From positions 4,936-68,935 of the forward strand of contig CALRYW010000007.1 in NCBI GenBank assembly GCA_943372485.1: a DNA stretch of 64,000 nt, read 5' to 3'. Shown piece after piece: positions 15,070 through 36,845 of this stretch (positions within the stretch are counted from its first letter, which is position 1; every line of letters starts with the position of its first letter). Source of the DNA: Bosea thiooxidans (lineage in GTDB: Bacteria > Pseudomonadota > Alphaproteobacteria > Rhizobiales > Beijerinckiaceae). Made by a program: the position numbers and the translations under genes. The notes beneath the pieces are model-generated. The model searched no databases and had not been told where the DNA came from. It saw nothing but the letters and a program-made list of their open reading frames with translations.

Positions 15070-16692
15070 TCACTCGAAGGCGGTGATGACCGCATCGACA
15101 TCCGTGACGACACAGACATTCTGCATCGCGTAATTGACTGACGCCGTGTGCCATTCGGCGTTCATCGTCGAGCAGGCATCCTCCGGCACCAGCATGAAAT
15201 AGCCCTTGTCGGCGCCGCTGCGTGCCGTGTGCTCGATCGACATGTTGGTCCAGGCGCCGGTGACGATGACGACGTCGCGGCCCAGCGCCTTGAGCACGGT
15301 CTCCAGCCTTGTCCCCTCCCAAGCGCTCATGCGGCACTTCTCGACGACATGGTCGCCAGCCTGCGCCTCGAGCCCTGGCACCGGCGCGCAGCCCCAGGTC
15401 CCGCGCACCAGCGCCTTGGCGTCCGCCAGGCCCTCGAACAGCGGTGCGTTCATGGTGACGCCCGGCGCGCCGGGCTCCACCACGAACCAGACATGGATCA
15501 CCGGAATGCCGCGGGCACGCGCCGCTTGGGCCAGACGGCCCGCATTGCCGATCGCGTTCTGCTGCCGGCAGTGCTCCGGCGAACCCGAGGAGGCGAAGGC
15601 GCCGCCCTCCATGATGACGTCGTTCTGCATGTCCTGGATGATCAGCGCGCAGCGGCCCGGATCGAGCCGGTAGCCGGAGGCCGCCTTCTTCGCGCCGCTG
15701 GCGGCGATCGTCGCGGCGGGTTTGACGCCTGAGACCGGCTCGGACGGGGGAGGGCCGCCGCTGCGACTGCGCTCCGGGCCGCCAGCCTTCATATACGGCT
15801 CCATCCGGGGGCCGACCTTGGTCTCGACGGCATAGAGCGAATGCGTCGCGGTCAGGAACAGCGTGCGCCAGTCCGGCCCGCCCCAGGTCAGGTTCCCAAC
15901 GAGCTCGGGCACGCGCAGCTTGCCGATGAGTTCGCCCCTGATGGTGTAGACCCAGACGCCGCCGGGGCCGCAGACCCAGAGATTGCCCTGTGCATCGCAT
16001 TTCATGCCGTCGGGCACGCCGGGCTCGCTGGCCGAGACGATGCCGGAGGCGAAGATGCGCCCCGGTCCGAGCCGCCCATCGCCGAGGATCGGGAAGACGC
16101 GGATGTTGTGCTGCACCGTGTCGTTGACGAAGAGGCGGTCCTCGGTCGGGCAGAAGCACAGGCCGTTGGGCTGGTCGAACAGATAGCGGTCAACCACGAG
16201 CTGCGGTTCGCCGCCGCCCGGCGGAATCCGATACACCCCCTGAAAGCCGAGCTGCCGCGGCCGCTCGACGCCGAAGACCGGCATGCGGCCATACCAGGGA
16301 TCGGAAAAGTAGATCGCCCCATCGGACTTCACCACGACGTCGTTGGGGCTGTTGAGCTCCTGCCCGTCGAAATGCGAGGCCAGCACCTCGCGCCGGCCGT
16401 CCGGCCGCTCGCGGACCAGCGACGACGTCGCGTGCTCGCAGACGATCAGGTTGAGGTCGGCATCATAGGTCATGCCGTTGCATTTGTTCGCCGGCCGCTT
16501 GACGTCGCGCACGCCGCTTCTGTCCCAGCGACGGCGGACGTCGCCAGGCATGTCGGAGAACAGCAGATGCTGTTCGCGCGGATGCCAGACCGGCCCTTCG
16601 CAGAATTCGAAGCCGGTGCCGAGCTGGCGCACCGGCGCCCAGAGATCGATCAGCTCGGCGAAGGCCGGGCGGACGGCGACGTGCGTGGTCAT
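15070..16692 (-). CDS. SMP-30/gluconolactonase domain fused to isochorismatase-like hydrolase domain
   Basis: N-half FCEGPVW, NSPNDVVVKSDGAIYFSDP, PDGMKCD; Pro/Ser/Ala linker; C-half IIQDMQND, VEKCRMSAW, GAWTNMSIEHTAR. Confidence 0.88.
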   Translation of the reverse strand: MTTHVAVRPAFAELIDLWAPVRQLGTGFEFCEGPVWHPREQHLLFSDMPGDVRRRWDRSGVRDVKRPANKCNGMTYDADLNLIVCEHATSSLVRERPDGRREVLASHFDGQELNSPNDVVVKSDGAIYFSDPWYGRMPVFGVERPRQLGFQGVYRIPPGGGEPQLVVDRYLFDQPNGLCFCPTEDRLFVNDTVQHNIRVFPILGDGRLGPGRIFASGIVSASEPGVPDGMKCDAQGNLWVCGPGGVWVYTIRGELIGKLRVPELVGNLTWGGPDWRTLFLTATHSLYAVETKVGPRMEPYMKAGGPERSRSGGPPPSEPVSGVKPAATIAASGAKKAASGYRLDPGRCALIIQDMQNDVIMEGGAFASSGSPEHCRQQNAIGNAGRLAQAARARGIPVIHVWFVVEPGAPGVTMNAPLFEGLADAKALVRGTWGCAPVPGLEAQAGDHVVEKCRMSAWEGTRLETVLKALGRDVVIVTGAWTNMSIEHTARSGADKGYFMLVPEDACSTMNAEWHTASVNYAMQNVCVVTDVDAVITAFE

Positions 16693-16704
16693 GGCGGCAG
16701 GCCC

Positions 16705-17553
16705 TTACGCCGCAAACCAGTTGCGCGGCGGCAGCGACTGCACGACCGGGCCGGGAACCGCCATGTCCATCCGGCCGACGACCTGACCGTGGGCGATCTT
16801 GGCCGGCTTGTCATGGACCGGCAGCAGGAATTTCCCGACCGAGAGCAGCTTCTTGATGGCCGCCTTTTCCTCGCGCTTGGAGACGCCGTGATTGCCGGTG
16901 GTGCGCGGCTCGTTGGCGCTGATCTCGTGGAAGGGCGTGACGATCTGGTCGTTGAAGTCGTAGATCACGTCGCCGCAGATGATGGCGCGCCCCTCGATCG
17001 TGTCGACATGGACATTCATCGAGCCCTCGGTATGGGCGCCGGCCGCTTCCAGATAGCAGCCGGGGAAGAGCTCGATCATCCCGGACAGCTCCAGATCCTC
17101 GAAGCGAAGTGCGTCGCGCGTGTGCAGCCGGTCGATCAGATGCTTGATGTCGGGCGCCGGATACTGCGGATGCATCAGCCCGGAGACGGAGTATTCCAGC
17201 TCACGCCGGTTGACGATCACCGTCGTGTTCATCGGGAAGAGCTCGTCCTTCCCGGCATGATCGATATGGAGATGGGTGTGCATCACGTAGCGCACATCGC
17301 CCATCCGCACGCCGTATTTGGCGAGCTGGTTCTCGATCATGTTCTCGTGGAACTGGAGGCCGCGCATGCCGAGCGTCTCCATGATCTGGTTGTGCCGGTA
17401 GCCGGTGTCGACGACGACTGGCCAGGGGCCGCCGAGGATCAGGAAGCCATAGGTCGGCACGCGCCGCGTGCGGCCGCAGTCGCGGCCGAGGACCAGGAAG
17501 CTCGATTCCAGCTCGATGTCGCCATAGTCGAGGATCTTGATTTCGAGCGCCAT
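16705..17553 (-). CDS. Metallo-beta-lactamase-fold hydrolase, AHL-lactonase (AiiA/AttM)-like family
   Basis: VVVDTG, HTHLHIDHAG (HxHxDH), GAHTEGS, GDVIY, PVHD. Confidence 0.88.
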   Translation of the reverse strand: MALEIKILDYGDIELESSFLVLGRDCGRTRRVPTYGFLILGGPWPVVVDTGYRHNQIMETLGMRGLQFHENMIENQLAKYGVRMGDVRYVMHTHLHIDHAGKDELFPMNTTVIVNRRELEYSVSGLMHPQYPAPDIKHLIDRLHTRDALRFEDLELSGMIELFPGCYLEAAGAHTEGSMNVHVDTIEGRAIICGDVIYDFNDQIVTPFHEISANEPRTTGNHGVSKREEKAAIKKLLSVGKFLLPVHDKPAKIAHGQVVGRMDMAVPGPVVQSLPPRNWFAA

Positions 17554-17565
17554 GGAGGTTCTCCG

Positions 17566-18450
17566 TCAGGGCTGGGCGAGGCGGTAGACCCGCCGCGCGG
17601 TTTGGCTGAAGACAGCGTCCACCGCGCCTTCAGGCACGGCGGCGCGATGGGCGCCGATCAGCTCGGGATAGCTCGTCCAGAGCTTCTCGATCGGGAAGTT
17701 GGAGCCGAACAGACAGCGCTCGGCCCCGAACAGCGCGAGCGTGTCCGTCACGACGAAGGTGATCTGCGCGGGATCGTTGCGGCGCTGGAACGTGCCGAGT
17801 CCCGAGAGCTTGCTGACGATGTTGGGCTGGTCGGCGAGCGACCGCATCCCTTCCCGCCAGTGCGCGATGCCGCCCGTCGACAGGTCCTCCAGCATGCCGG
17901 CGTGCTGGAGCACGAAGGTCACCTCGGGACAGGCCGCGGCGAGTTCAGCCGCGCCCGCCATCTGCGGGGCGAAGACCTGCAGGTCGAAGCTGAAGCCGTA
18001 ACCGGCCAGCCGGCCGATATTGGCCTGCAAGAGCGGGTCGCGGCAGAGATCGGCGCCGCCTGCGAAGCGATAGAGCGGGTTCGCGTGCCAGTGCAGCTGC
18101 ATGCGCACGCCGCGCACCCGCGGGTTCTGCGCCAGCGCGTCGAGCTGCGGCCGGACGTCTTCTGCGAGCATGTCGGCATAGGCGACGATGGCGATTGGGA
18201 AGCCGGAGTCGTCGGAGGCCTGCGAGACGAAGGCGACCTCGTCGAGATGGCGCGCCGGCGCCCAATTCGCCTGGACATAGACGGCCTGCGTCACGCCGCA
18301 GGGGCGGCACTCCGCCAGGTACTCCGCAACCGGATAGTCGCGCCGGATCGGCTCATAGGGGCCGAAGATGCGCGGTTGCATCGGGCCCAGCAGCCAGGGC
18401 AGATCGGCTTGGCGCCAGATATGGAAATGCGAGTCGATGATGCCGGTCAT
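17566..18450 (-). CDS. Amidohydrolase_2-family hydrolase (LigI / L-fuconolactonase-like)
   Basis: IDSHFHIW, VLQHAG, SKLSG, LFGSNFP. Confidence 0.85.
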   Translation of the reverse strand: MTGIIDSHFHIWRQADLPWLLGPMQPRIFGPYEPIRRDYPVAEYLAECRPCGVTQAVYVQANWAPARHLDEVAFVSQASDDSGFPIAIVAYADMLAEDVRPQLDALAQNPRVRGVRMQLHWHANPLYRFAGGADLCRDPLLQANIGRLAGYGFSFDLQVFAPQMAGAAELAAACPEVTFVLQHAGMLEDLSTGGIAHWREGMRSLADQPNIVSKLSGLGTFQRRNDPAQITFVVTDTLALFGAERCLFGSNFPIEKLWTSYPELIGAHRAAVPEGAVDAVFSQTARRVYRLAQP

Positions 18451-19559
18451 GCCGCGGCCGAGCCTCCGAGCGACAGGATGTGGCGGCAGATCCGCGCCGT
18501 GCTGCCGCCATGGCCGAGGCTGGCGAGCGCCGGCGCGATCAGCCGCAGCGCCTCGGTCTCGGGCCTGTAGCCGGGATCGGCGGCGAGCGGCGTCAGCCAG
18601 TCGATACGGTGGGCGCGGGCGGCCAGTCTTTCGACGGCCGACACCAGCGCGGCCGGGTCGCCGCGCTCCAGCCCGTCCGACAGTACCACGACCACGGCGC
18701 CACGGGCGTAAGAGGCAAAGCGCGGCATGGCGAGGAAGGCCTGCAGCGCATCGCCGATGCGGGTGCCGCCGTCCCAGTCGGCAACGAGGCCGGACGCTTC
18801 GGCGAGCGCCTGCTCGCGACGCCGGCGGCGCAGTGCGCGTGTCACCCGCGTCAGCCTGGTGCCGAAGGTAAAGACCTCCGCCCGCGGCGCCGCCTGCACC
18901 ACCGCATGAGCCAGGGCGAGATTGGCGTCGCTGCGCTGCTTCATCGAGCCGGAGACGTCGATCAGCAGCAGGATCGGCCGGGGCCGCGGGACGCGCCTGA
19001 GCTTCTTCAGGCTCATCACCTCGCCATCATGGCGGATTGCGGCGCGCAGGCTGCGGGCGAGATCGACGCTCGCCCCCCGCCGGGCGCCGCGATGGCGGTA
19101 GCCGCGGCGGCGGGGCAGGGCGGCCGGCAGCGCCCGGGCAAAGCGGCGCAGGGTCTCGGCTTCGTCGAGCGGCTTCAGCGCCCGGACCGACAGGGCCTCC
19201 GCCCCCGTTGCAGCCTGACCGGTCTCGTTGACCTCCTCGCCGATCAGGATCTCGCGCGAGCCGGAATCCTCCTGGACCGCCATCTCCTCGTCGGGCGCGA
19301 AGTCGTCGTCGCCGGGTTCGGCGACGGCGCCGAGGAAATGCAGGTCGAACAGCGCATCGAACCGGTCGCGCTGTTCGGGATGGGGCGCGAACGTCGCCAC
19401 CGCCGCTTTGCGGATATGCTCGATGCTGCGCGGCCCGAGCAGCTCGACCGCCATCAGGAAGCTCGTCGTCTGCTCGGGCGCGACCGAGAAGCCATGGCCG
19501 CGCAGCAACGTTGGGAAGGCGACGAACAGGCGTGCAGCGGCAGGGAGCGGGGCGATCAT
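18447..19559 (-). CDS. CoxE-like VWA-domain protein
   Basis: LLIDVSGSM MIDAS, FTFGTRLTRVT, WDGGTRIG, VLSDGLERG. Confidence 0.9.
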   Translation of the reverse strand: MIAPLPAAARLFVAFPTLLRGHGFSVAPEQTTSFLMAVELLGPRSIEHIRKAAVATFAPHPEQRDRFDALFDLHFLGAVAEPGDDDFAPDEEMAVQEDSGSREILIGEEVNETGQAATGAEALSVRALKPLDEAETLRRFARALPAALPRRRGYRHRGARRGASVDLARSLRAAIRHDGEVMSLKKLRRVPRPRPILLLIDVSGSMKQRSDANLALAHAVVQAAPRAEVFTFGTRLTRVTRALRRRRREQALAEASGLVADWDGGTRIGDALQAFLAMPRFASYARGAVVVVLSDGLERGDPAALVSAVERLAARAHRIDWLTPLAADPGYRPETEALRLIAPALASLGHGGSTARICRHILSLGGSAAA

Positions 19560-19572
19560 GGCCGCCTCCAGC

Positions 19573-19662
19573 CGTCATTGCGAGGAGCGCCAGCGACGAA
19601 GCAATCCAGGGGGGCGTCGAGCACGGCCGCCCCTGGATTGCTTCGTTGCGCCCGCAATGACG
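19573..19662. repeat. Rhizobial REP/RIME-like palindromic intergenic element
   Basis: Nested inverted repeats: CGTCATTGCG (19573-19582) / CGCAATGACG (19653-19662) and CGAAGCAATCCAGGGG (19597-19612) / CCCCTGGATTGCTTCG (19630-19645). Confidence 0.85.
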
Positions 19663-19671
19663 ATTGAATGC

Positions 19672-20556
19672 TCATGCCGCCAGCCCCGGGATGATCGCCG
19701 GCAGACGGGGACGCAGATGGACGAAATCCTCCTCGTCCTTGATTGCGGCACCCAGCGAGCGACGGAACGCCTCCGGCCAGGGCGCTCCGGCCCGGGCGAG
19801 CGCGGTCGCGGCCTCCGCCCAGTCGACGGCCTCGGCCACGCCCGGCGGCTTGGCCAGTGGCTCCTGCCTCAGGAGCCCGATGGCCTGGACGACGGCGCGC
19901 GCCGTGCCCTCGGCGACGGCCGAGGAGCGCATCATGATGATCTGCGCTTCGCGCTCGGGCTCGGGATAGGCGATGTAGTGGTAGACGCAGCGGCGCCGCA
20001 GCGCCTCGTGCAGCTCCCGCGTACGGTTCGAGGTCAGCACCACGACCGGCCGCTCGGCGGCGCGCAGGGTGCCGCGCTCGGGGATCGAGATCGAAAAGTC
20101 GGACAGGAATTCGAGCAGGAAGGCCTCGAATTCATGGTCCGAGCGATCGATTTCGTCGATCAGCAGCACGGTCGATTCCGGCCGCCGCAGGGCTGTCAAC
20201 ATCGGACGCTCGATCAGGAAGTCGTCTCGATAGATGTCGAGTGTCTCCCCTTCGCGGGCTTGCCTGATGGCCAGCATCTGGCGCGGATAGTTCCACTCGT
20301 AGAGCGCGGCCGAGGCGTCGATGCCCTCGAAGCATTGCAGCCGGATCAGCTGGCGCCCGAGGATGCCGGCGATCGCCTTGGCGGCCTCGGTCTTGCCGAC
20401 GCCGGGCGCGCCCTCGAGCAGCAGGGGCTTGCCGAGGGCTAACGCGAGGTAGCCGGCCGTGGCGATGCCGTCATCGGCGAGATACATCGCGCCCGTCAGG
20501 GCCTGCGCGAGGTCCTCGGGGCTCGAGATTCCGGCGACGGTGGTGCGCAGCGCCAT
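19672..20556 (-). CDS. CoxD-like MoxR-family AAA+ ATPase
   Basis: LLEGAPGVGKT, LQCFEGIDASAALYEWNY, LLIDEIDRSD, TSNRTRELHEALRRRC. Confidence 0.92.
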   Translation of the reverse strand: MALRTTVAGISSPEDLAQALTGAMYLADDGIATAGYLALALGKPLLLEGAPGVGKTEAAKAIAGILGRQLIRLQCFEGIDASAALYEWNYPRQMLAIRQAREGETLDIYRDDFLIERPMLTALRRPESTVLLIDEIDRSDHEFEAFLLEFLSDFSISIPERGTLRAAERPVVVLTSNRTRELHEALRRRCVYHYIAYPEPEREAQIIMMRSSAVAEGTARAVVQAIGLLRQEPLAKPPGVAEAVDWAEAATALARAGAPWPEAFRRSLGAAIKDEEDFVHLRPRLPAIIPGLAA

Positions 20557-20560
20557 GCGA

Positions 20561-23404: not shown

Positions 23405-23887
23405 TCAGGCGCGGCGCAGGCCGGGCGAACCGGCGGCGGCGAGGATCGCGGCGACGATGGGTTCGTAGCCGGTGCAGCGGCAGATGTTGCCGCTGATCGC
23501 CTCGATGACCTCGTCGCGGGTGGGGTTGGGTTTTTTGTCGAGCAGGGCGCGCGCCGCCGTCAGCATGCCCGGCGTGCAGAACCCGCACTGCGCGGCGAAA
23601 TGCTCCATGAACTGCACCTGCAGCGGGTGCAGCTCGGGTCCATTGGCCATCCCGGAGGCCGTCTCGACCTGCCTGCCCTCGCAGGCGACCGAAAGCGTCA
23701 GGCAGGAGAGATGCGGCTCGCCATCGATCAGCACGGTGCAGACGCCGCAGGCTCCCTGGCCGCAGCCATATTTCGGGGCGAAGTCGCCCAGGCTCCGGCG
23801 CAGCGTGTCGAGCAGCGTCTCGGGCGCATCGACGAAGGCGGCGCGGTCGGTGCCGTTGAGGCGGAACTGGACGGGGATCTTGGCCAT
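23405..23887 (-). CDS. Molybdenum hydroxylase 2x[2Fe-2S] subunit
   Basis: KYGCGQGACGVCTV...SCL and QCGFCTPG...NICRCTGY. Confidence 0.95.
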   Translation of the reverse strand: MAKIPVQFRLNGTDRAAFVDAPETLLDTLRRSLGDFAPKYGCGQGACGVCTVLIDGEPHLSCLTLSVACEGRQVETASGMANGPELHPLQVQFMEHFAAQCGFCTPGMLTAARALLDKKPNPTRDEVIEAISGNICRCTGYEPIVAAILAAAGSPGLRRA

Positions 23888-24719: not shown

Positions 24720-25172
24720 TCAGACCGCCTCCCCCGCGAGTTCCGGCAGGCGGCGTACCGCCTCGATGCCGTTGGTGTAGACCTCGTCGCCGACGATGCG
24801 GGCGAGCTCGGCCTCGCGGCCGCGGGGCGTGGTGAATCGGCTTTCCCAGTGCCAGAAGGCGCGGTTGCCGTCGGTCACCGGCAGCAGCCGGACATGGGCG
24901 ACGTAGTTGAAGAGCGGGATCGGCGTATCCAGCAGGCAGTAGCTGAAGGTCATTTCGAGGTCCGACAGCGTGAGGAGCTGCTCGCGCAGCTCGCTGCCGT
25001 CCTGCAGCCAGAAGCGGCGCACGCAGCCGATCCGGTCGGACGGGTGGCCGCGCTCGATCTCGCTCCTCGCGACGATCGGGTGCCAGCGGTCATGGCCGTT
25101 GAAGTCGCGCAGCACCGACCAGAGCAGGTCGACCGGCGCGTCGATGATCGTGCTGCGGACGACGTGAGGCAT
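24720..25172 (-). CDS. SRPBCC (Polyketide_cyc2 / MxaD / PYL-like) protein, copy 2
   Basis: LWSVLRDFNGHDRWHP, IGCVRRFWL, LREQLLTLSD, NYVAH. Confidence 0.88.
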   Translation of the reverse strand: MPHVVRSTIIDAPVDLLWSVLRDFNGHDRWHPIVARSEIERGHPSDRIGCVRRFWLQDGSELREQLLTLSDLEMTFSYCLLDTPIPLFNYVAHVRLLPVTDGNRAFWHWESRFTTPRGREAELARIVGDEVYTNGIEAVRRLPELAGEAV

Positions 25173-25175: not shown

Positions 25176-25613
25176 TCATCCCCCGAATGCGCGCTTGAGG
25201 GCATCGAATCCGCCCTGGAAGACATTGGTGCCGATGCCCTCGACCAGCTCCGCCTCGCGCTCCGGCGCACAGTCGAAATCGGCCGACCATTCGATGAAGG
25301 TACGCTCCTGGTCGGTGATCGGCGTGAGCCGCAGCGTCGCAACGTAATTCGTCAGCGGCATCGGCGAATCCAGGATCGAGTAGGTGCAGAACATGTCGTA
25401 GTCGGAAAGGCCGAGCAGCTGCTCGCGCAGGCGATCGCCGCTGCGCAGCGAGAAGGCGCGGATGCAGCCGACCTTGTCGGCCGGCTCGCCGTTTTCGATC
25501 CGGCTTTCGGCGATACGCGGATGCCAGTTCGGCAGGCCGTTGAAATCGCGTACGCGGGCCCAGACCTTGGCGGCGGGGGCGGAGATGACGCTGGAGACGT
25601 AGACGCGGGCCAT
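25176..25613 (-). CDS. SRPBCC (Polyketide_cyc2 / MxaD / PYL-like) protein, copy 1
   Basis: VWARVRDFNGLPNWHP, VGCIRAFSL, LREQLLGLSD, NYVAT; clearly paralogous to its neighbour. Confidence 0.88.
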   Translation of the reverse strand: MARVYVSSVISAPAAKVWARVRDFNGLPNWHPRIAESRIENGEPADKVGCIRAFSLRSGDRLREQLLGLSDYDMFCTYSILDSPMPLTNYVATLRLTPITDQERTFIEWSADFDCAPEREAELVEGIGTNVFQGGFDALKRAFGG

Positions 25614-28554: not shown

Positions 28555-29430
28555 TCACTTCGCCTTGCCCGCCTTGCCGGCGTGCTTTTTGTTCGTGAGA
28601 TCGCGGCCGATGCGCTTGAAGGCGCGCGTCTGCTCGCGGATCGCGACCTCGACCGGCAGGCGCTCCATCGAGGAGGCGCCGTAGAAGCCGTGGCAGTGCT
28701 CGGTGTGCTTCATGATGAAGTCGGCATCCGCCGGCTCGGCGACCGGGCCGCCATGCACGAGGATGAGCGCGTCCTTCTTGACCGCGAGCACGGCCGCGGC
28801 CCAGGCATCGACCAGCGCCGGGCAGTCGGCGAGCTTGAGCGCCGTCTCGGCGCCGATCGCCCCGCCGGTTGTCAGCCCGAGATGGCAGACGATGATGTCG
28901 GCGCCCGCCTTAGCCATGGCGCGCGCATCGGCCTCGCAGAAGACGTAAGGCGTCGTCAGCAGGCCCTTCGCATTGGCGAGACGGATCATCTCGACCTCAA
29001 GGCCGAAGCCCATGCCGGTCTCTTCGAGGTTCTTGCGGAAGATGCCGTCGATCAGCCCGACGGTCGGGAAGTTCTGCACCCCGGCGAAGCCGATCCGCGC
29101 GACCTCGTCGAGGAAGACGTCCATCCGCCGGAACGGATCGGTGCCGCAGACGCCGGCGATCACCGGCGTGGTCTTCACCACTGGCAGCACCTCGGCCGCC
29201 ATCTCCATCACGATGGCGTTGGCGTCACCATAGGGCATCAGCCCCGAGAGCGAGCCGCGGCCGGCCATGCGGTAGCGCCCCGAATTGTAGATCACGATGA
29301 GATCGATCCCGCCGGCCTCTTCGCATTTGGCCGACAGCCCCGTGCCTGCACCCCCGCCGACGATCGGCTCGCCGGCCTTCACCATTGCCTGGAAGCGCTT
29401 CAGCAGGCTCTTTTTGTCGAAGCTCGCCAT
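28555..29430 (-). CDS. Phosphoenolpyruvate-hydrolase-like TIM-barrel protein (homologue of the Tm-1 C-terminal domain)
   Basis: Start trimmed to MASFDKK; [50 protein letters not shown]. Confidence 0.9.
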
Positions 29431-31703
29431 CAGGCCCCTCCAGCCTTCGCCCGCTCGCGCCGGCGCCCGGCATGCAGCGCGCGGAACTGCTGCACGAGGG
29501 CGGTGGCGAAGGCCGGATCGTTGATGTGATGCGGGCAGCGGATCAGCTGCCGCGTCGGCGTCTGGCGCACGGTCTGCTCCAGCGCCTGGAACAGGGCGGC
29601 ATCCGCGGCGGGATCGTGGAAGGGCTGGCCAGGCGCATCGAGCGCCGAGACGCCGCGCTCGGGCAGGAGGAAGCGCACCGGCCCCTCCATTAGGTTCAGT
29701 CGCTCGCCGATCCAGCGCCCCATCCGCGCATTCTCGTCCGCCGTCGTCCGCATCAGCGTGATCTGCGGATTGTGCGGATAGAGATTGCGGCTGCGATAGC
29801 GTTCCGGAACCGTCTCGGGCGCGAAGAAATTGACCATGTCGAGCGCGCCGACCGAGCCGATATAGGGAATGCGCGTGCGGATGATCGCGCCGAAGCGATC
29901 CTCCGTCGCCGGCAGGACGCCACCCATCATCAGGTCGCAGATTTCGGTGGTGGAGACGTCGATCACGGCGCCGACCAGGCCGGAGTCGACGAGCTTCTCC
30001 AGAGCGCGCCCGCCCGTGCCGGTGGCGTGGAAGACGAGCGGCTCCCATTCGGCCTCCAGCAGCTGCGAGACCTGCTTCACACAGGGGGTCGTCACGCCGA
30101 ACATGGTGAGCCCGACCAGCGGCTTTTCGGGCCCAGCGCGCCGCGTCGTCGCGGGCTTGGTCAGCTCGGCCAGCCGCGCCTTGGCCATCGCGGCCATCGC
30201 CCGCGCCCCGTTTCCGAGCACCAGCCGCGAGACCCGGTTGATCCCCTGCACATCGGTGACGGCATGCATCATCGTGATGTCGGCGGCGCCGACATAAGCC
30301 GCGACATCGCCCGAGGCCATGGTCGAGATCATCAGTTTCGGCAGCCCGATCGGCAGGGCCTGCATGGCGGGTGTCACCATCGCGGTCGCCCCCGAGCCGC
30401 CGGCGGAGATCACGCCGAGAACGCCCTGCTGGCGCGGCAGCCAGGCCTTGAACGCCTCTGTCATCGCCGCCACGGCCGCTCCGCGGTCGCCGGAGGCGAT
30501 GCCGGCCGAGCCGCGCGGATGGGCGAGCGCGATCTCCTGCGGGGTGACGTCGCCGCCGGCGCTGCGGCCCGAGGTCGAGATGTCGACGAGCCGCGCCCGC
30601 CCCCCCTCCGCCTGGATGAGATCGCGGATGAAGCGCAGCTCCTCCCCTTTGGTGTCGAGCGTACCGACGACGATGACATGCGGCTCGCCGCTGCCCGAGG
30701 GCGCATGGCGCCGGCCGTCCGCGACCCGGGCACCGTCGCGCGTCGCCAGCGTCGGGCGCGAGATCGTCCGCGCCTGGGCCTCGATCCGCGCCGCCGGGAC
30801 GGGCTGCGACCAGCGCGTCGGGATCACCGGATTGGCGTTGTAGACCCGCATCGGGCCGCTCGGCTGGGCAGGGGCGCGGGCCGTCCCGCTCTCCGACGTC
30901 GCCGCTGGTTCGGGCGCGCCGTCAGTTTCGTCATGGCTGTGCCGGCCGACGCCGAGCAGGCGCTGCTGCAGGTCGCGGTCGCCGGCCAGCGTCGCCGAGG
31001 CGATGATGCGGTTGATCCGGCCATTGACCATGATGGCGACCGGGTCCGACATTTCGGTCGCGACGCCGATGTTCTGCTCGATCACGAGAATCGCGACGTC
31101 GCCCTGCTCGGCGAGGCGCACCAGCATCTCCTCGACATGGGCGACGATGACGGGCGCGAGCCCCTCCGTCGGCTCGTCCATGATCAGCAGGCGCGGATTC
31201 ATCAGGAGCGCCCGGCTGATCGCCAGCATCTGCTGCTCGCCGCCCGAGAGCTGGGCGCCGCCATTGTTGCGGCGCTCCGCCAGCCGCGGGAAGGCTTCGT
31301 AGATCCGTTCCGGCGTCCAGGCCCCGCGCTTGGACCGTTGCATCAGCCGCAGATGCTCGTCGACCGTGAGCGAGCGCCAGAGCCGGCGACCCTGTGGTAC
31401 ATAGCCGATGCCGAGCCGCGCGATCTCGGCCGGGCTGCGCCCCGCGATCTCCTCGCCGAAGAAGCGGATCGAGCCCGAGCTGACCGGCACCAGCCCCATG
31501 ATCGCCTTGCACATGGTCGTCTTGCCCATGCCGTTGCGGCCGACCACCGAGAGCACGCCGCTTTGGAGCGTGAGGTCGACGCCCTGAAGCGCATGGGAGC
31601 GCCCATAAAACACGTTGAGACCGGCGATCTGCAGGATCGGCATGCCGACGCCGGGAGGGGCCTTGAGGCGCTCAGCCATGCCCGCCTCCGCCGTGACCGC
31701 CAC
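29430..31703 (-). CDS. LivF-type ABC ATPase fused to a Tm-1-like / UPF0261 domain
   Basis: aa ~20-250: [31 protein letters not shown]; linker; then [57 protein letters not shown]. One open frame. Start may be slightly downstream (MPILQ). Confidence 0.88.
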
Positions 31704-32475
31704 CGAGATAGAGCTCCTGGACCTCGGGGTCGCTCTCGATCTCCTGCGGCGCGCCTTCCTTGAAGATGCGGCCGTTGTGCATCATCGTCACGCTCTCGAC
31801 GACGCGCAGCGCCACATCCATGTCGTGCTCGATGATGATGTAGCCGATATGGCTCGGTAGCGAGGTCAGGATGTGGACGAGGTCGCGCCGCTCGGTGGGA
31901 GACAGCCCCGCCGCCGGCTCGTCGAACAGGATGAAACGCGGCGCGCCCGACAAAGCGAGCGCGATTTCGAGCTGGCGCTGCTGGCCATAGGCGAGCTCGC
32001 CGACCAGCCTGTCCTTGACGGCCGAGAGATGCACCGCCTCGACCAGCGTCTCGGCCGCATGGACCAGCGCGTCGTCCCGGCGCGGGCGCAGCAGCGAGAA
32101 GCGGTTCCGCGAGACGCCCCGGCAGGCGAGATAGACATTGTCGAGCACCGAAAGCCCGGTGAACAGCGACGAGATCTGGTAAGTCCGGCGCAGACCCCGC
32201 CGGATGCGCTCCTGCGGCGGAAAGGCGGTGACATCCTCGCCGAAGAAGCGGATCACGCCCGAACTCGGCGCGAAATCGCCGGTGACGCAGTTGAACAGCG
32301 TCGTCTTGCCGGCCCCGTTCGAACCCAGCACGGCCCGCCGCTCGCCGGGCTTCACCGAGAGCGTGATGTCAGTCAGCGCCGCCAGGGCGCCGAACAGCCG
32401 CGAGACCCCGCGCAGTTCGAGCGCGTTGGCGGAGCCCGCCGCCGTCAGCCGCTCGCGAGAGACGACCGCGCTCAT
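31672..32475 (-). CDS. LivG-type ABC ATPase
   Basis: Start trimmed to MSAVVS; GSNGAGKTT, LAYGQQRQLEIA, FDEPAAGL, IEHDM, VQELYLG. Confidence 0.92.
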   Translation of the reverse strand: MSAVVSRERLTAAGSANALELRGVSRLFGALAALTDITLSVKPGERRAVLGSNGAGKTTLFNCVTGDFAPSSGVIRFFGEDVTAFPPQERIRRGLRRTYQISSLFTGLSVLDNVYLACRGVSRNRFSLLRPRRDDALVHAAETLVEAVHLSAVKDRLVGELAYGQQRQLEIALALSGAPRFILFDEPAAGLSPTERRDLVHILTSLPSHIGYIIIEHDMDVALRVVESVTMMHNGRIFKEGAPQEIESDPEVQELYLGGGHGGGGHG

Positions 32476-33557
32476 GGCGCCCCTCCGCCTGCGCCCATCT
32501 GGCTGTCGCGGGCGTCGCGGCCACGGCGATAGCGTTCGCGCAGCCGCTGGAAGATGCCGATCAGCCCGTCGGGCGAGAACAGCACGATGACGAGAAAGCC
32601 GAGCCCAATCAGCAGCTGGTAGCGCCGCCCGTCGAGGCCGACACCCTCGAGCACATCGAGCGCGAAGGTGCGCAGCAGGACATAGACGAGCGCGCCGATG
32701 AAGGGGCCGATTGGGCGGCTCAGGCCGCCGACCACCGCGATGATTAGCATGTCGACGACGGGCCCGACGCCGGCCGTGCCGGGCGAGATCTGGCGCTGGT
32801 ACCAGACCAGCAACACCCCGGCGCAAGCGGCGATCAGCGAGGCGAAGGTATAGGCGGCGATGCGGTGCGCGACGACGTCGAAGCCGAGCGCCGCCATGCG
32901 GCGGGGGTTGTCGCGCGTGCCCTGCAAGGCGAGCCCGAAGGGCGCCCGCGAGACATAGATCACCGCGCCATAGGCCAGCGCCGCACAGGCCAGCGTCAGG
33001 TAGTAGAAGGGCAGGCTCTGGCCCCAGTCGATGCCGAGGAAGACCGGCGGCAGGATGCCGTTGAAGCCGCTGAAGCCGTTGAAGATCGTGTAGTTCTGCA
33101 GCGTCAGGTAATAGAACGCCGAGGCGATCGCGAGCGTGATCATGATCGTGTAGATGCCCTCGGTGCGCACCGAGAGTGCTCCGCTCAGCGTGCCGAACAG
33201 CGTCGCGACCAGGATCGCGACCGGCACCGCCGTCCACCAGGGCCAGTTCAGGCTGATCTGGGTGATGGCGCTGCCGCCGAGGATCGCCACGAGATAGCCG
33301 GCAAAGCCGGCCACCGTCATCTGGATCAGGCTGACAATGCCGCCATAGCCGGCCAGGAACATCAGGCTGAGCGCGACCATGCCCAGGATCATCGCATAGG
33401 CGATGATCTGGACGAGCCAGAACGGGCTGGCGATGGCGGGCATGACCAGCAGCAGTGCGGCCACGACCCAGAACGCCGTGCCCCGACGCGCAACCCAGTC
33501 CCCGACGCCCTCCTGGGGACGGGCGCGCTGCTCCAGCTCGAGGTCGGCGATGGCCAT
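32472..33557 (-). CDS. LivM-type ABC permease
   Basis: GYGGIVSL, GIYTIMITLA, FGLALQGTRDN, VVGGL...GPFIGA. Confidence 0.9.
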   Translation of the reverse strand: MAIADLELEQRARPQEGVGDWVARRGTAFWVVAALLLVMPAIASPFWLVQIIAYAMILGMVALSLMFLAGYGGIVSLIQMTVAGFAGYLVAILGGSAITQISLNWPWWTAVPVAILVATLFGTLSGALSVRTEGIYTIMITLAIASAFYYLTLQNYTIFNGFSGFNGILPPVFLGIDWGQSLPFYYLTLACAALAYGAVIYVSRAPFGLALQGTRDNPRRMAALGFDVVAHRIAAYTFASLIAACAGVLLVWYQRQISPGTAGVGPVVDMLIIAVVGGLSRPIGPFIGALVYVLLRTFALDVLEGVGLDGRRYQLLIGLGFLVIVLFSPDGLIGIFQRLRERYRRGRDARDSQMGAGGGAP

Positions 33558-33559
33558 CG

Positions 33560-34570
33560 TCAGCGCCTCGCCGCCAGGCCTTCGGGCCTGATCGCCAGCA
33601 CCGCGACCATGATCAGGAAGGTCAGCATCACCGCATAGGTCGGCATGTAGACTGAGCCAAACTGTTCGGCGAGGCCGACGATCAGCGCCCCGACCGCCGC
33701 GCCGGGGATCGAGCCCATGCCACCGACGATGACGACGACGAGCGAGGACAGCAGGATGCGCGTATCCTCGCCCGGCTGCAGCGACTGGAAGGTACCGCCG
33801 ACGACGCCGGCGAGGCCCGCGAGCCCGGCCCCGAAGGCGAAGACCATGACAAAGACCAGCTGCACGCGCACGCCGGTCGCCGACAGCATGTCGCGATCAT
33901 CCACCCCGGCGCGCACCAGCATGCCGACCCGCGTGCGGTTGAGCGCCAGCCACATCAGCACGCCGACGATGATCGCCCCGATCAGGATGGCGATGCGCAC
34001 CAGCGGGTAGGTCATCATCACCGCCTCGCCATTGCTGCGCAGCGCGACCGCCAAGGGCAGCGTCACCGGCCCGGAGAGCCAGTCCGGCGCGGTGACCTGG
34101 AAGGTGTCGCCGCCATAGCTCCACAAAAGCAGGTCGGCGAAGATGATCGAGAGGCCGATGGTGACGAGCGTCTGGCGGAGGTCCTGGCCCTCCATCCAGC
34201 GAAACAGCAGCACCTGCATGAGGATGCCGACCAGCGCCACGACGAGGAAGGCGACCAGCAGCGCCATCAGCCAAGAGCCGGTCCATTCGCCGACGCTGTA
34301 GCCGACATAGCCGCCGAACAGATACAGCGAGCCGTGCGCAAGGTTGACGTTGCGCATCAGCCCGAAGATCAGCGTGAACCCGCTGGCGACCAGGAAATAC
34401 AGCGCCCCCAGCGTGATGCCGTTGAACAGCGCACTCAGGAAGACGCGCTTGCGCCCGAACATCGCCTCCATCCCCGGCGTCCAGATCGAAAAGACGAGCC
34501 AGGCCAGGACGGCCAGCGCCAGCAGGATGATCAGCGACCAGATCGGGCGGCGGGCGACGAAATCAGACAT
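33560..34570 (-). CDS. LivH-type ABC permease
   Basis: Start trimmed to MSDFVA; GFTLIFGLMRNVNLAHG, VVIVGGMGSIPGA, RPEGL. Confidence 0.92.
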   Translation of the reverse strand: MSDFVARRPIWSLIILLALAVLAWLVFSIWTPGMEAMFGRKRVFLSALFNGITLGALYFLVASGFTLIFGLMRNVNLAHGSLYLFGGYVGYSVGEWTGSWLMALLVAFLVVALVGILMQVLLFRWMEGQDLRQTLVTIGLSIIFADLLLWSYGGDTFQVTAPDWLSGPVTLPLAVALRSNGEAVMMTYPLVRIAILIGAIIVGVLMWLALNRTRVGMLVRAGVDDRDMLSATGVRVQLVFVMVFAFGAGLAGLAGVVGGTFQSLQPGEDTRILLSSLVVVIVGGMGSIPGAAVGALIVGLAEQFGSVYMPTYAVMLTFLIMVAVLAIRPEGLAARR

Positions 34571-35435
34571 GGCAGGCCCGCAGCGACGGGCCGGACAGGG
34601 GCGGCGGCTGGCCGACACGGCGCAGGACCCGGCGATAATCCCGCGGCGCCATCCCCATATGGGCGGTGAAGAAGCGGGTGAAGACGCTCTGGCAGGAGAA
34701 GCCGAGCCTCTGGCTGATCTGCGTCACCGGATCGCCCGAGAGCACAAGGCGATCGAGCGCCGCATCGAGCCGGACGGTGTTGGCGAAGACGGTCGGGGTG
34801 ACGCCGACCTGCTCGCGGAAGAGCTTGAAGAAATGCGCCCGCGACAGCCCGGCCTCTCGGGCGACACGGGCGAGTGCACCCTCATGGGCGGGATGGGCCT
34901 CGATCAGACGCTGCGCCCGCACCACCCGCCGGTCGAGCACGCTTTCCGGCGCGACATGCAGCAGGGCGGAGGCGAGGTCCTGGCCGATTGGCTCGCTCGA
35001 GGCCTGGGCCAGCGCCATCAGTACCGGCGCCAGATTGAGATCGCGATGCGCCGACAGCAGCATCTCGACCGCCTCGTCGCGCCAGGAGGCGAGTTCGCGG
35101 GTGATCACCAGCTCGGACGCCGGGAAGGCGAGCGCACCGGGCGGCGTCATGGTCTGGGCCGCGAGCCATTCGGGCTTGAGATAGACGACGAGGAAGAGGC
35201 CGAGCGCGCCGGCCCGTTCCGGCTGGAAGTTGTGCGGCTCCCAGGGATTGATCGCCACCCCCATGAAGGGGTCGACCAGCGTGGCGCGGCCATTCACGGT
35301 GACGATACCGCGCGACCCTTCGAGGAAGAAGATCAGATGGGCCTCGCGGTGGGCGTGCAGCACCAGCGGGCGGTCGAGATCGTAGATCGCGACGCGGCCG
35401 AAGGGGCCGTGGCAGACCGCAACTGCGCGACTCAT
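34563..35435 (-). CDS. AraC-family transcriptional regulator
   Basis: Cupin-like HAHREAH N-domain; C-terminal VAREAGLSRAHFFKLF and LGFSCQSVFTRFF double HTH; start trimmed to MSRAVA. Confidence 0.92.
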   Translation of the reverse strand: MSRAVAVCHGPFGRVAIYDLDRPLVLHAHREAHLIFFLEGSRGIVTVNGRATLVDPFMGVAINPWEPHNFQPERAGALGLFLVVYLKPEWLAAQTMTPPGALAFPASELVITRELASWRDEAVEMLLSAHRDLNLAPVLMALAQASSEPIGQDLASALLHVAPESVLDRRVVRAQRLIEAHPAHEGALARVAREAGLSRAHFFKLFREQVGVTPTVFANTVRLDAALDRLVLSGDPVTQISQRLGFSCQSVFTRFFTAHMGMAPRDYRRVLRRVGQPPPLSGPSLRACHV

Positions 35436-35597
35436 GATGCCTCGCGAAAGTAGGTCCGACGCAGGAAGCTGGGCCTCGTCAGGCAAGCCGCCGGCTTGGC
35501 ACCACGAGATCCGCTCGCAGGCGCCGGGAGTCGGGACGTGACGGAAGCGGAGGGGGCACGCATGGCGCGGGTCCCCTCCATCGGGCGCTCGGGCGCC

Positions 35598-36845
35598 CTA
35601 TTTCTTGCATTCCGGATTGGTCCGGGACGGCAGGCCGATCGCCTTGAACGCCTCCAGCGAGAGGCCCAGCGTCTGCGTCACGTCCGGCACGGCACGCACG
35701 AACTTGTTGGTCAGATCGCCATTGGGCAACTCGGCGACCTCGGTGATGAAGGTCGTGGCGATCGCCTGCCGGTTGTCGTCGAGCCGGATCTTGCCGTTGG
35801 GCGCATTCAGTTCGACCTTGGCCAGCTCGGCGCGCAGCTTGGCGCCGCCATCCGAGAGGTCGCCCTTGACCTTGTCCATCGCGATCGAGAGCGCCATCAC
35901 GGCGTTGTAGTAGTTGGTCGCGAAGAGCGAGGGGCTGGCGAAGCGCTTGTCGGCCGGGAAGGCGTCCTGATAGGTCTTCACCCAGGCCTTCCAGCGCGGG
36001 TCGTCCCAGGCGTCGGCGACGCCGCCCGACGAGGGCGTGCCGACGAGCAGGCGCTTGGCGGCGCCCTTCGACGACAGCACGGTCTGGTCGACCATGATCG
36101 AGCCGCCGATGAATTTCGCCTTGCCGCCGGTCTGGCTGTACTGGTTCAGGAAGTTGACCGCGTCGCCGCCGCCCAAGCCGAGAAACACGGCGTCGACATC
36201 GTCGGGAATGTTGGCGATCACCGAGCCGAAATCCTTGGTGCCGAGCGGCACCCACTGGCGCTGGACGATCTGGCCGCCCGCCCGGCAATAGCCGATCGCG
36301 AAGCCGAAGACCTGCGTGTAGGGGAAGGAGTAGTCCTCGGCGATCACCGAGATCTTCTTGAAGCCCTTGTCCTTCAGCACGTATTCGCCGAGACCGGCCA
36401 TCCACATGGCACCATCGCTGTTGAAGCGGAAGAAGTTCGGCGAGGGATTGACGAAGGTCGTCTCGAGCGCCCCCGACGAGCCGTTGACCATGACGAGGTT
36501 CGGCACCGTCTTGCTGTAGTCGCGCATGGCGATGCCTTCGGAGCCGGAGAGCGGCCCGATGATGAGCTGCACCTTGTCCTGCTCGACCAGCTTGCGGGCC
36601 GCGCGCAGCGCGGAATCCGGGCTGGCGTCGGTGGCTGTGATGATGAATTCGAACTCGCGCCCGGCGATCTTGTTGCCGAGTTCCTTGGCCGCGATCTGGA
36701 CACCGCGGACACCGTCTTCACCGCCGGACGTCAGAGCGCCCGACAGCGTCGCCATCACACCGATCTTGAGTTTTTCCTGGGCATGCGCGGCCGGTGCAGC
36801 CGCGACGAAACAGGCCGCGACGGCGGCCGCAAGCGTCTTGCGCAT
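35598..36845 (-). CDS. LivJ/K-type (PBP1) ABC substrate-binding protein
   Basis: Sec signal; KIGVMATLSG, IIGPLSGSEG, AEDYSFPY, VPLGTKDF. Confidence 0.9.
   Translation of the reverse strand: MRKTLAAAVAACFVAAAPAAHAQEKLKIGVMATLSGALTSGGEDGVRGVQIAAKELGNKIAGREFEFIITATDASPDSALRAARKLVEQDKVQLIIGPLSGSEGIAMRDYSKTVPNLVMVNGSSGALETTFVNPSPNFFRFNSDGAMWMAGLGEYVLKDKGFKKISVIAEDYSFPYTQVFGFAIGYCRAGGQIVQRQWVPLGTKDFGSVIANIPDDVDAVFLGLGGGDAVNFLNQYSQTGGKAKFIGGSIMVDQTVLSSKGAAKRLLVGTPSSGGVADAWDDPRWKAWVKTYQDAFPADKRFASPSLFATNYYNAVMALSIAMDKVKGDLSDGGAKLRAELAKVELNAPNGKIRLDDNRQAIATTFITEVAELPNGDLTNKFVRAVPDVTQTLGLSLEAFKAIGLPSRTNPECKK

Follow-up and report, generated by a model that had tools for sequence, protein, structure and literature searches.

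A flotillin-bearing molybdenum hydroxylase operon of Bosea thiooxidans built from two modules that also occur alone

We describe an array of 19 genes on the minus strand (positions 15070-36845) of a 64,000-nucleotide (nt) stretch of Bosea thiooxidans DNA (assembly GCA_943372485.1, contig CALRYW010000007.1, positions 4,936 to 68,935; hereafter the window). The array brings together an ATP-binding cassette (ABC) importer of the LIV type, one ATPase of which is fused to a UPF0261 domain, a TIM barrel, a giant flotillin, two SRPBCC proteins, a molybdenum (Mo) hydroxylase of the xanthine oxidase family and several hydrolases. This operon is a merger of two modules, each of which is also found alone, and its modular anatomy is our main new result. 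The preliminary description, made from the letters of the sequence, knew of no characterized pathway with this gene set; likewise, our full-text literature searches returned no description of this gene combination, and nothing relevant on Tm-1-like/TIM-barrel pairs, on MadB/MadC or on Mo-type indole/oxindole clusters. On balance, we favor the view that it is a horizontally mobile, membrane-organized catabolic operon, built by merging the two modules, for a small aromatic or heterocyclic compound, which would probably be of plant or soil origin.

Two modules and their merged form

Pfam searches of the 19 open reading frames (ORFs) recover every domain that had been named in the preliminary description, and in the order named there. 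The ORF map agrees with the tight spacing that it had reported: 16 of the 18 junctions fall in the range from -8 to +28 nt, and the remaining two are the 162-nt gap between the genes for the substrate-binding protein (SBP) and the AraC-type regulator and the 112-nt gap between those for the MoxR and VWA proteins. Coding sequence takes up 21396 of the 21776 nt, and plausible ribosome-binding sites precede all 19 trimmed starts.

Comparison across genomes confirms these genes as one co-conserved unit, a property on which the preliminary description had staked its reading. An ortholog of the TIM-barrel gene with at least 85% identity is present in 11 of 24 Bosea congeners, and the whole set is syntenic, at 77-100% protein identity, in all eight of the congeners fetched. 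It is also syntenic in two other families of the order (Hyphomicrobiales) at 34-83% identity, one of them lacking only the Amidohydro_2 and metallo-beta-lactamase-fold (MBL) genes. A scan with an SRPBCC alignment over one genome per species (185,579 species) gave at least 590 matching stretches; the best 80 loci, which were compared further, all show these genes in unchanged order up to the end of the contig or of the 10-kb flank, a recurrence far beyond chance, and only the AraC, Amidohydro_2 and MBL genes are sometimes missing. The hosts span Bosea, Bradyrhizobium, Phreatobacter, Pseudolabrys, Mesorhizobium, Rhizobium, Phyllobacterium, Aquabacter, Hyphomicrobiaceae, Rhodobiaceae and others, and many carriers are isolates from roots, nodules or algae. 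Beyond these, the full set was seen on a Yoonia plasmid (order Rhodobacterales) and in G378, from another family of alphaproteobacteria. At least 75 genomes of several families preserve the merged order at 50-80% protein identity, with flanks that vary.

Module 1 consists of the LIV importer, the LivF::UPF0261 fusion, the TIM barrel, flotillin and the two SRPBCC proteins (SRP1 and SRP2); module 2 consists of the FAD and 2Fe-2S subunits, the split Mo subunit (MoL and MoM), the MoxR and VWA proteins and the Amidohydro_2 hydrolase. Judged by gene content and order, the Bosea form, type A, is a B-like and a C-like module merged, plus the genes for the MBL hydrolase and for a fusion of SMP-30/gluconolactonase (SGL) and isochorismatase-like domains. 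Type B is module 1 with no Mo enzyme, in the order LivH, LivM, SBP, LivG, LivF::UPF0261, TIM barrel, flotillin, SRP1 and an SRP2 fused to an MDR-type reductase (ADH_N + ADH_zinc_N); it was found on the chromid of Variovorax paradoxus VAI-C, in a member of another class (G305), in another alphaproteobacterial family (G076) and in two further genomes, G148 and G235. Type C is module 2 standing alone: in Sinorhizobium BG8 the order is AraC, SRP1-like, FAD, FeS, MoL, MoM, MoxR, VWA, Amidohydro_2; in Nonomuraea it is GntR, FAD, FeS, MoL, MoM, MoxR, VWA, Amidohydro_2; on a haloarchaeal plasmid an ABC transporter is followed by FAD, FeS, MoL, MoM, a cyclase-family protein and an SRPBCC protein; and five more Hyphomicrobiales genomes show FeS (C-terminal end only), MoL, MoM, MoxR and VWA within 4-kb loci. 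Two of these five, G148 and G235, carry type B as well, on a different contig. Every locus of type A or B has a flotillin gene. The interpretation in the preliminary description thus needs revision in that flotillin, the two SRPBCC proteins and the Tm-1-like enzyme do not belong to the Mo hydroxylase as its accessories: they and the LIV importer make up a module in its own right, which elsewhere is Mo-less.

The SRPBCC proteins straddle these forms. SRP1 is the general paralogue, seen also as a single protein with Tm-1-like pairs or with stand-alone Mo modules; SRP2 is specific to flotillin modules and is the one that bears the reductase in type B, such SRP2::ADH_N/ADH_zinc_N fusions being found in four lineages. 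Triads of Tm-1-like protein, TIM barrel and SRP1-like protein, with neither importer fusion nor flotillin nor Mo enzyme, are present on plasmids of Azospirillum and Bosea vestrisii. A role of the SRPBCC proteins solely as Mo-enzyme subunits is ruled out by the type B and triad contexts, and their being unrelated to the Mo enzyme is ruled out by the contexts in Sinorhizobium BG8 and Salinigranum. Beside the triads, on the opposite strand, lies a gene for a ~580-residue 'PEP hydrolase family' protein (Azospirillum argentinense p3, L114, 8016-9797; Bosea vestrisii plasmid, L115, 9453-11189), a pairing that is also the weak second TIM match in three Bosea genomes.

The merger has a correlate in the Mo enzyme itself. 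In the window MoL ends in a Pro-rich tail of 125 residues (21609-21983) with the terminal peptide RFSSVFGRRR (21609-21638). Across about 75 type A loci, MoL measures 522-595 residues, and its variable Pro-rich linker leads to an almost invariant (H)GAxRFSS(V/I)(F/S)G(T/L)RRR at the C-terminus; in seven type C loci it is 456-459 residues long and stops directly after the fold, with neither tail nor peptide. The RFSSVFGxRRR motif has no other occurrence in the window or in the variants. This restriction of tail and peptide to the merged form suggests a physical recruitment of the Mo enzyme. Tethering is thus seen three times: in the linker between LivF and UPF0261, in the SRP2-reductase fusion of type B and in the tail and peptide of MoL in type A. 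The MoL of Sinorhizobium sp. BG8 was excluded from the tail comparison, its frame being broken: on pEMPC1 (L149, 12631-14001) 237 nt separate a 378-residue MoL ORF from MoM, possibly a frameshift or a pseudogene, in a record with hardly any annotation. In one uncultured alphaproteobacterium with a type A locus (L069), a 7.4-kb insertion (10874-18234) lies between the SRP2 and FAD-subunit genes.

Table 1. Features of the operon and its leader, in window coordinates, listed from the 5' end of the minus strand
Feature	Coordinates	Strand	Domain or other evidence
Conserved leader/promoter region, ~135 nt, 5' of the SBP gene	36846..36985	-	Common to 9 Bosea orthologous loci
Periplasmic SBP, HAAT/LivJ-type, signal peptide	35598..36845	-	Peripla_BP_6, E 2.7e-58
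AraC-family regulator, cupin-type sensor domain	34563..35435	-	HTH_18, HTH_AraC, Cupin_2
ABC permease, LivH/UrtB-like	33560..34570	-	BPD_transp_2, 2.3e-33
ABC permease, LivM/UrtC-like	32472..33557	-	BPD_transp_2, 2.6e-30
ABC ATPase, LivG/UrtD-like	31672..32475	-	ABC_tran, BCA_ABC_TP_C
LivF::UPF0261 fusion, 737 aa	29430..31643	-	ABC_tran, UPF0261, UPF0261_C in one frame, no stop
TIM-barrel partner of UPF0261, PEP_hydrolase family	28555..29430	-	PF09370, 6.2e-128
Giant flotillin, 966 aa	25626..28526	-	Band_7, Flot
SRPBCC protein 1 (SRP1)	25176..25613	-	Polyketide_cyc2, PF10604, 3.8e-28
SRPBCC protein 2 (SRP2)	24720..25172	-	Polyketide_cyc2, PF10604, 1.9e-18
Mo hydroxylase FAD subunit, 273 aa	23897..24718	-	FAD_binding_5, CO_deh_flav_C
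2x[2Fe-2S] subunit	23405..23887	-	Fer2, Fer2_2
MoL, N-terminal half of Mo subunit, NdhL-like, 595 aa	21606..23393	-	Ald_Xan_dh_C (hammerhead), MoCoBD_1
MoM, C-terminal half of Mo subunit, NdhM-like, 347 aa	20561..21604	-	MoCoBD_2
MoxR-type AAA+ ATPase, CoxD-like	19672..20556	-	AAA, AAA_5, AAA_3
VWA protein, CoxE-like	18447..19559	-	VWA_CoxE, 1.9e-50
Amidohydro_2 hydrolase, lactonase/decarboxylase fold	17566..18450	-	PF04909, 2.4e-39
MBL hydrolase, acyl-homoserine lactone (AHL)-lactonase/4-pyridoxolactonase-like	16705..17553	-	Lactamase_B
SGL::isochorismatase-like fusion	15070..16692	-	SGL, Isochorismatase

Components and their nearest relatives

Across all 19 proteins, the NCBIfam search returned no equivalog of named function at its cut-off, the sole model passed being UPF0261, a 'hypothetical protein'. 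The cofactor and catalytic motifs that we checked are invariant in 53-76 orthologs, the exception being the Amidohydro_2 protein, in which only the HxH histidines are constant; judged by these intact motifs, the genes are therefore functional.

The importer has the parts of a HAAT-family LIV-type system by Pfam, namely a Peripla_BP_6 SBP, two BPD_transp_2 permeases and two ATPases. None of its proteins reaches a Liv or Urt equivalog cut-off in NCBIfam (the LivH/UrtB-like permease scores 177 bits with the UrtB model against a cut-off of 250), which indicates that its substrate differs from those of the Liv and Urt systems. The nearest solved structures for the SBP are 4ZPJ and then 4EY3, 4EVS, 4EVQ and 4F06 (E 1e-17 to 1e-24), as against 1e-6 for a Leu-binding protein; it is closer to 4EY3, 4EVS, 4EVQ and 4F06, which we take to be aromatic-acid binders of Rhodopseudomonas palustris (our literature search left this unconfirmed), than to amino-acid or urea binders. 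An SBP gene was found upstream of the operon in all 10 distant type A genomes examined. Conservation is lowest for the AraC-type regulator (34-55% in distant loci), which some loci lack.

In the LivF::UPF0261 fusion, a LivF-type ATPase (residues 1 to ~235) is joined by a ~90-residue low-complexity linker to the UPF0261 part (residues 321-725). The Walker A, signature and Walker B motifs and the lysine of GTxDTK are invariant in 65-66 orthologs, and alignment to Tm-1 and MarK marks that lysine as the ATP-contacting one. The protein aligns as a single high-scoring segment pair in 59 of 66 loci, makes up more than 120 clusters at 90% identity and is found in 11 of 401 sampled Pseudomonadota genomes. 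Its label in NCBI and UniRef, 'ABC transporter permease', is a systematic annotation error, as the protein contains no membrane domain. The ATG of the TIM-barrel gene overlaps the stop codon of the fusion gene, and the barrel matches Mll9387 (2P10) at 1.1e-116. Together the two proteins display the makeup of a Tm-1-like pair (UPF0261 N and C domains, PEP_hydrolase barrel and GTxDTK lysine), with the halves encoded by separate, overlapping and translationally coupled genes; tomato Tm-1 joins the same two domains. The UPF0261 part is nearer to tomato Tm-1 (2.7e-96) than to MarK (9MPY; 1.4e-57). To our knowledge, Tm-1 is known solely as an inhibitor of a viral replicase, with no enzymatic role, and MarK is the sole characterized enzyme with a UPF0261 fold. 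MarK (Saro_1862 of Novosphingobium aromaticivorans) is an ATP-dependent kinase of aromatic (phenolic) hydroxyl groups (PMC12624787), with His219, His304 and His348 at its substrate site. The Bosea domain shares with it the fold and the ATP-contacting lysine, a similarity at the family level (9MPY). However, MarK is free-standing in an acetovanillone carboxylase operon, whereas the Bosea domain forms one chain with an importer ATPase and has SRPBCC proteins and flotillin as companions.

The flotillin has the architecture of its family: an N-terminal membrane anchor, an SPFH domain, an Ala/Glu/Arg-rich coiled coil and a Flot domain. Like FloT and YqiK in these respects, it differs from them in being about twice the usual length, on account of a coiled coil with a 44-residue period (an autocorrelation peak at lag 44, with further ones at 88, 77, 33 and 11), and in being a fixed member of a catabolic-type operon instead of standing alone. 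Its length ranges from 562 residues in Variovorax to 1129 in Yoonia, the NCBIfam FloT model scores 35 of 700 bits, and no gene for an NfeD-type partner was found among the 19 operon genes by Pfam. SRP1 and SRP2 are 47% identical to each other, and SRP1 is 74-99% identical across the order; the SRPBCC families that they match are Polyketide_cyc2 and, weakly, Polyketide_cyc, and no other. Neither has a CoxG-type match, and at 145-150 residues, with the SRPBCC domain filling residues 1-143, they are too short for an added membrane segment. The SRP2 gene lies 1 nt upstream of the FAD-subunit gene.

The Mo hydroxylase has the full domain set of the xanthine oxidase family (Ald_Xan_dh_C, MoCoBD_1, MoCoBD_2, Fer2, Fer2_2, FAD_binding_5 and CO_deh_flav_C), with MoL and MoM as two ORFs 1 nt apart. 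The best matches of the two halves in the PDB are chains A (1.1e-56) and B (6.7e-47) of 3HRD, the nicotinate dehydrogenase of Eubacterium barkeri, and the next-best structural relative of both is 4-hydroxybenzoyl-CoA reductase. In this family the GxGE motif supplies the catalytic glutamate, and GGGFGGK and xRGFG line the molybdenum cofactor site; GGGFGGK and AMRGFG in MoL and GPGE in MoM are invariant in 67-76 orthologs, the last within a GxKGPGEM invariant in 67. MoM is among the most conserved members of the operon (95-99% within Bosea). Against NCBIfam models the Mo subunits reach at most 270 of ~780 bits. The partial matches of the enzyme to all three glyceraldehyde dehydrogenase subunits and to aldehyde oxidoreductases are about as good as those to xanthine dehydrogenases. 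A dehydroxylase of the 4-hydroxybenzoyl-CoA reductase type was set aside: the FAD subunit is short, and it matches the 321-position model for the beta subunit of that enzyme (HcrB) over residues 4-108 only. The MoxR-class AAA+ ATPase and the VWA_CoxE protein beside the Mo genes have the form of a CoxD/CoxE-type pair, which accompanies the Mo genes in stand-alone modules too; by analogy we regard it as a putative maturation pair of the Mo enzyme. The nearest NCBIfam model for the ATPase is MadB (259 bits against a cut-off of 475).

Among the hydrolases, the Amidohydro_2 protein is nearest in structure to the fuconolactonase 4DLF (7e-16), with 93.5 bits against a cut-off of 400 for the NCBIfam fuconolactonase model, and may be a lactonase or a decarboxylase. 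Its gene follows the VWA gene in both stand-alone Mo modules that were read that far (Sinorhizobium BG8 and Nonomuraea) and is missing from some type A loci. The MBL hydrolase, 95-99% identical within Bosea and with the HxHxDH metal-site motif, as HTHLHIDH, invariant in 59 orthologs, is weakly related to 4-pyridoxolactonase (NF047925, 60.7 of 325 bits) and to the AHL lactonases AiiA (54 of 375) and AttM (44 of 390). The SGL::isochorismatase protein, with 3E5Z and 3KL2 as its nearest structures, consists of a gluconolactonase-like beta-propeller (residues 31-283) and an isochorismatase-like domain (residues 348-533). For the latter, the amidase label of the preliminary description is doubtful: its triad is Asp-Lys-Ser and not Asp-Lys-Cys, with Ser485 (codon 15238-15240) aligned to Cys166 of RutB. 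This serine is invariant in place of the catalytic cysteine (TNMS[IV]EHT in 54 of 54 orthologs), and the RutB model scores 62 of 378 bits. By its residues, the domain is thus not a cysteine hydrolase of the kind represented by RutB, NicF, BiuH and nicotinamidase.

Three known gene clusters invite comparison. Closest in its logic is the 3-hydroxypyridine dehydrogenase system: the 3hpd cluster encodes HpdA, a Mo hydroxylase whose activity in vivo depends on an SRPBCC subunit as well as on a kinase pair (bioRxiv 10.1101/2020.01.08.898148). Like 3hpd of Ensifer adhaerens HP1 (HpdA1-4), the Bosea operon combines a xanthine-oxidase-family hydroxylase with separate SRPBCC proteins, an adjacent, putatively ATP-dependent kinase-type pair and nearby transporter genes. 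However, the 3hpd kinase pair is of the phosphoenolpyruvate-utilizing/pyruvate phosphate dikinase kind, as against UPF0261 and a TIM barrel; its SRPBCC protein, HpdA3, is annotated as a carbon monoxide dehydrogenase (CODH) gene product and has a predicted signal peptide and membrane segment, whereas those of Bosea are soluble Polyketide_cyc2 proteins; and it has an unsplit Mo subunit, no flotillin, no ABC-ATPase fusion and a maleamate pathway that is absent from the Bosea operon. With NdhFSLM of E. barkeri (3HRD) the Bosea enzyme shares its build from four chains, the order FAD, 2Fe-2S, Mo-L, Mo-M and the domain boundary at which the Mo subunit is split; this match is at the family level, and NdhL, 425 residues in the structure and aligned to residues 18-439 of MoL, has no counterpart of the tail or peptide. 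Unlike the E. barkeri cluster, the Bosea operon has MoxR/VWA genes. Finally, the arrangement recalls coxMSL-DEFG, where FAD, Fe-S and Mo genes in the same order precede those for CoxD, a MoxR-type ATPase, and CoxE, a VWA protein, and where the SRPBCC protein CoxG links CODH to the membrane. The Bosea operon departs from it in having no CoxF, SRPBCC proteins of the Polyketide_cyc2 family only and a split Mo subunit. CODH was rejected as a candidate, the CODH models scoring below those of xanthine dehydrogenase; the AMRGFG loop presumably lacks the Cu-binding cysteine motif of form I CODH.

A candidate mechanism and competing explanations

Briefly, we advance the following mechanism, of which we infer each biochemical step, the order of the steps, the organizing role of flotillin and the substrate class. 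The LIV-type importer would bring the substrate in, and the imported molecule would be captured at the inner face of the membrane. The LivF-tethered UPF0261 domain, working with the TIM barrel, might use ATP for its activation, most likely by a MarK-like phosphorylation of a phenolic or enolic hydroxyl, after which the SRPBCC proteins would pass the activated molecule to the redox enzyme. The Mo enzyme, to go by its family, would insert a water-derived oxygen to yield a lactam, lactone or acid. In the merged form it might be recruited to module 1 by its flexible Pro-rich tail, with RFSSVFGxRRR as a candidate docking signal, and in Mo-less variants the direct fusion of reductase and SRP2 would serve instead. 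As many as three lactonase-type enzymes (Amidohydro_2, MBL and SMP-30), together with the Asp-Lys-Ser domain, would then open the oxidized product at its lactone, lactam or ester functions, and flotillin would hold the assembly at the membrane as its organizer.

Several observations weigh against this interpretation. A pathway complete from uptake through hydroxylation to ring opening had been proposed in the preliminary description; its logic of uptake, oxidation and hydrolysis is reasonable, but its completeness does not stand, as Pfam finds no ring-cleavage oxygenase among the 19 genes. MarK works with neither a TIM-barrel nor an SRPBCC partner, and the Bosea domain is closer to Tm-1 than to MarK; kinase activity on a transported substrate is thus an extrapolation. 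The TIM-barrel gene is missing between the LivF::UPF0261 and flotillin genes in the type B loci of G148 (L144/L145) and G235 (L146/L147), so that the barrel is not obligatory in the flotillin module. The link of the MoL tail and peptide to recruitment is one of correlation. The replacement of cysteine by serine could mean that the last domain is no amide hydrolase at all. A promoter and terminator scan over 14500-34400 gave counts no higher than in shuffled sequence and so lent the presumed co-transcription no support. A bolder form of the mechanism, a flotillin-organized metabolon on the cytoplasmic side of the membrane in which the ABC importer is coupled to a Tm-1-like kinase that phosphorylates the substrate on entry (group translocation), with the clients recruited by tethers, seems to us unlikely.

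The heterocycle named as substrate in the preliminary description is not established, and an aldehyde substrate for the Mo enzyme has to be considered. If the enzyme were an aldehyde oxidoreductase, the operon might handle a non-aromatic, sugar-like or aliphatic lactone or aldehyde, which would be oxidized to an acid or lactone and then meet the lactonases, much as in non-phosphorylative sugar-acid routes with their SMP-30 or Amidohydro_2 lactonases, SDR dehydrogenases and FAH-family hydrolases. The near-equal partial matches to glyceraldehyde dehydrogenase/aldehyde oxidoreductase and to xanthine dehydrogenase models fit such a route, as do the nearness of the Amidohydro_2 protein to fuconolactonase 4DLF and the gluconolactonase-like SGL domain, the SDR and FAH genes that adjoin the operon in Yoonia, Rhizobium LjRoot30 and G050 (FAH also adjoining the Variovorax variant) and the setting of the Bosea vestrisii plasmid triad among genes for a sugar ABC transporter, ThuA and Gfo/Idh/MocA proteins. 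However, these SDR and FAH neighbors are confined to a minority of loci, both Mo halves are nearest to enzymes of aromatic rings (nicotinate dehydrogenase and 4-hydroxybenzoyl-CoA reductase), the LivJ-type SBP is closest to 4EY3/4EVS/4EVQ/4F06 and not to sugar binders, and the sole known UPF0261 activity is on phenolic hydroxyls; we hold this route to be rather unlikely. Alternatively, one might see in the operon a variant of a known N-heterocycle pathway, for nicotinate, picolinate, hydroxypyridine or vitamin B6. The split into L and M and the F-S-L-M order match the E. barkeri nicotinate dehydrogenase, the top PDB match of both halves; further, maleamate amidase has an isochorismatase fold, PicC an Amidohydro_2 fold and 4-pyridoxolactonase an MBL fold, so that they share folds with the operon hydrolases as a matter of family knowledge, the matches being weak. 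Against this, and in keeping with the expectation of the preliminary description that no gene-for-gene match to nicotinate, picolinate or B6 degradation would emerge, no equivalog score is reached (4-pyridoxolactonase 60.7/325, Mo subunits at most 270/~780, RutB 62/378). By Pfam, no ring-cleavage oxygenase, monooxygenase, 2,5-dihydroxypyridine dioxygenase, deformylase, Cys-dependent maleamate amidase or maleate isomerase is encoded among the 19 proteins, and no 6-hydroxynicotinate reductase, enamidase or later domain of nicotinate fermentation is encoded among them or by the flanking genes. The cysteine of the amidase triad is replaced by serine, and the known clusters, as found in literature searches, have no flotillin, Tm-1-like pair or LivF fusion. 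The nicotinate, picolinate, 3-hydroxypyridine and B6 pathways are accordingly set aside, their later enzymes being missing, and we regard any variant of them as very improbable.

Two further possibilities concern the unity and the purpose of the operon. The importer/Tm-1/flotillin/SRPBCC genes, the Mo hydroxylase and the hydrolases might be two or three independent units that merely lie side by side and do not form one pathway: each unit occurs alone elsewhere, two genomes carry both modules on different contigs, and the 162-nt and 112-nt gaps could hold internal promoters. We give this little credence, as the merged order persists in at least 75 genomes though the flanks change, the SRP2 and FAD genes are 1 nt apart, the MoL tail and peptide occur only in the merged form, and the Mo-less variants fuse a different redox enzyme to SRP2 at the same position. 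It also seems improbable to us that the system is not primarily catabolic, serving instead in membrane-organized detoxification or in the turnover of signals such as plant or microbial lactones or quinone-like toxins, with the SRPBCC proteins carrying a hydrophobic ligand or quinone between redox enzyme and membrane. Such a role would suit the three lactonase-type folds, one of the AHL-lactonase type, the fusion of SRP2 to a quinone-oxidoreductase-like MDR domain in the variants, the F420H2-dependent quinone reductase gene beside the Nonomuraea Mo module and the many root, nodule or alga isolates among the carriers. However, an operon headed by genes for a high-affinity, binding-protein-dependent importer and an AraC-type regulator is typical of nutrient utilization, and the FAH, SDR and aldehyde dehydrogenase neighbors in some genomes point to a flow of carbon into central metabolism. 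Thus, we favor the catabolic, merged-module interpretation over these alternatives.

Genomic surroundings and implications

The flanks of the operon are unrelated even in a genome with operon proteins 90-100% identical to those of the window, and they hold no additional generally conserved genes, only SDR and FAH recurring in a minority of genomes. Directly downstream lies an ORF for a fragment of an IS3-type HTH_Tnp_1 transposase (13951-14976 on the minus strand and 13863-14462); together with the non-conserved flanks, it suggests a mobile or rearranged region. In Aquabacter spiritensis (L039), SRP1 is 96% identical to the Bosea protein and the other operon proteins are 77-96% identical, as in Bosea congeners, which points to a recent horizontal transfer of the whole operon. 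On the upstream side, the conserved leader of the SBP gene begins AAAAGCAGACC and is kept in all nine Bosea loci, with more distal sequence that differs. Consensus folding of the Bosea orthologues predicts two hairpins in it, with no compensatory pair and no covariation, and there is no match in Rfam; a riboswitch is therefore unsupported. A GntR gene follows just upstream of the operon, in a minus-strand string (37250-41333) that encodes a GntR/FCD regulator, a Gfo/Idh/MocA oxidoreductase, a protein of the isocitrate/isopropylmalate-dehydrogenase family and a second SMP-30/gluconolactonase-like protein (424 residues); this is possibly another lactone or sugar-acid route.

Several aspects of bacterial physiology become testable in this system. 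As a fixed member of an operon with named candidate clients, the flotillin makes the role of bacterial flotillins accessible to experiment. The same holds for the widespread UPF0261/TIM-barrel (Tm-1-like) pair, one domain of which is welded to an importer ATPase and always accompanied by SRPBCC proteins. The domain pair of Tm-1 was acquired by land plants from bacteria, and the metabolon, if true, would provide its first enzymatic context. Likewise, the recruitment of soluble redox enzymes can be probed by setting the tail and peptide of the merged form against the gene fusion of the Mo-less variant. Finally, among Hyphomicrobiales of roots, nodules and soil the operon is widely shared (for example Bosea, Bradyrhizobium, Mesorhizobium, Rhizobium and Phreatobacter), and hence it probably acts on a natural compound that is abundant and that bacteria degrade by a route as yet unmapped.

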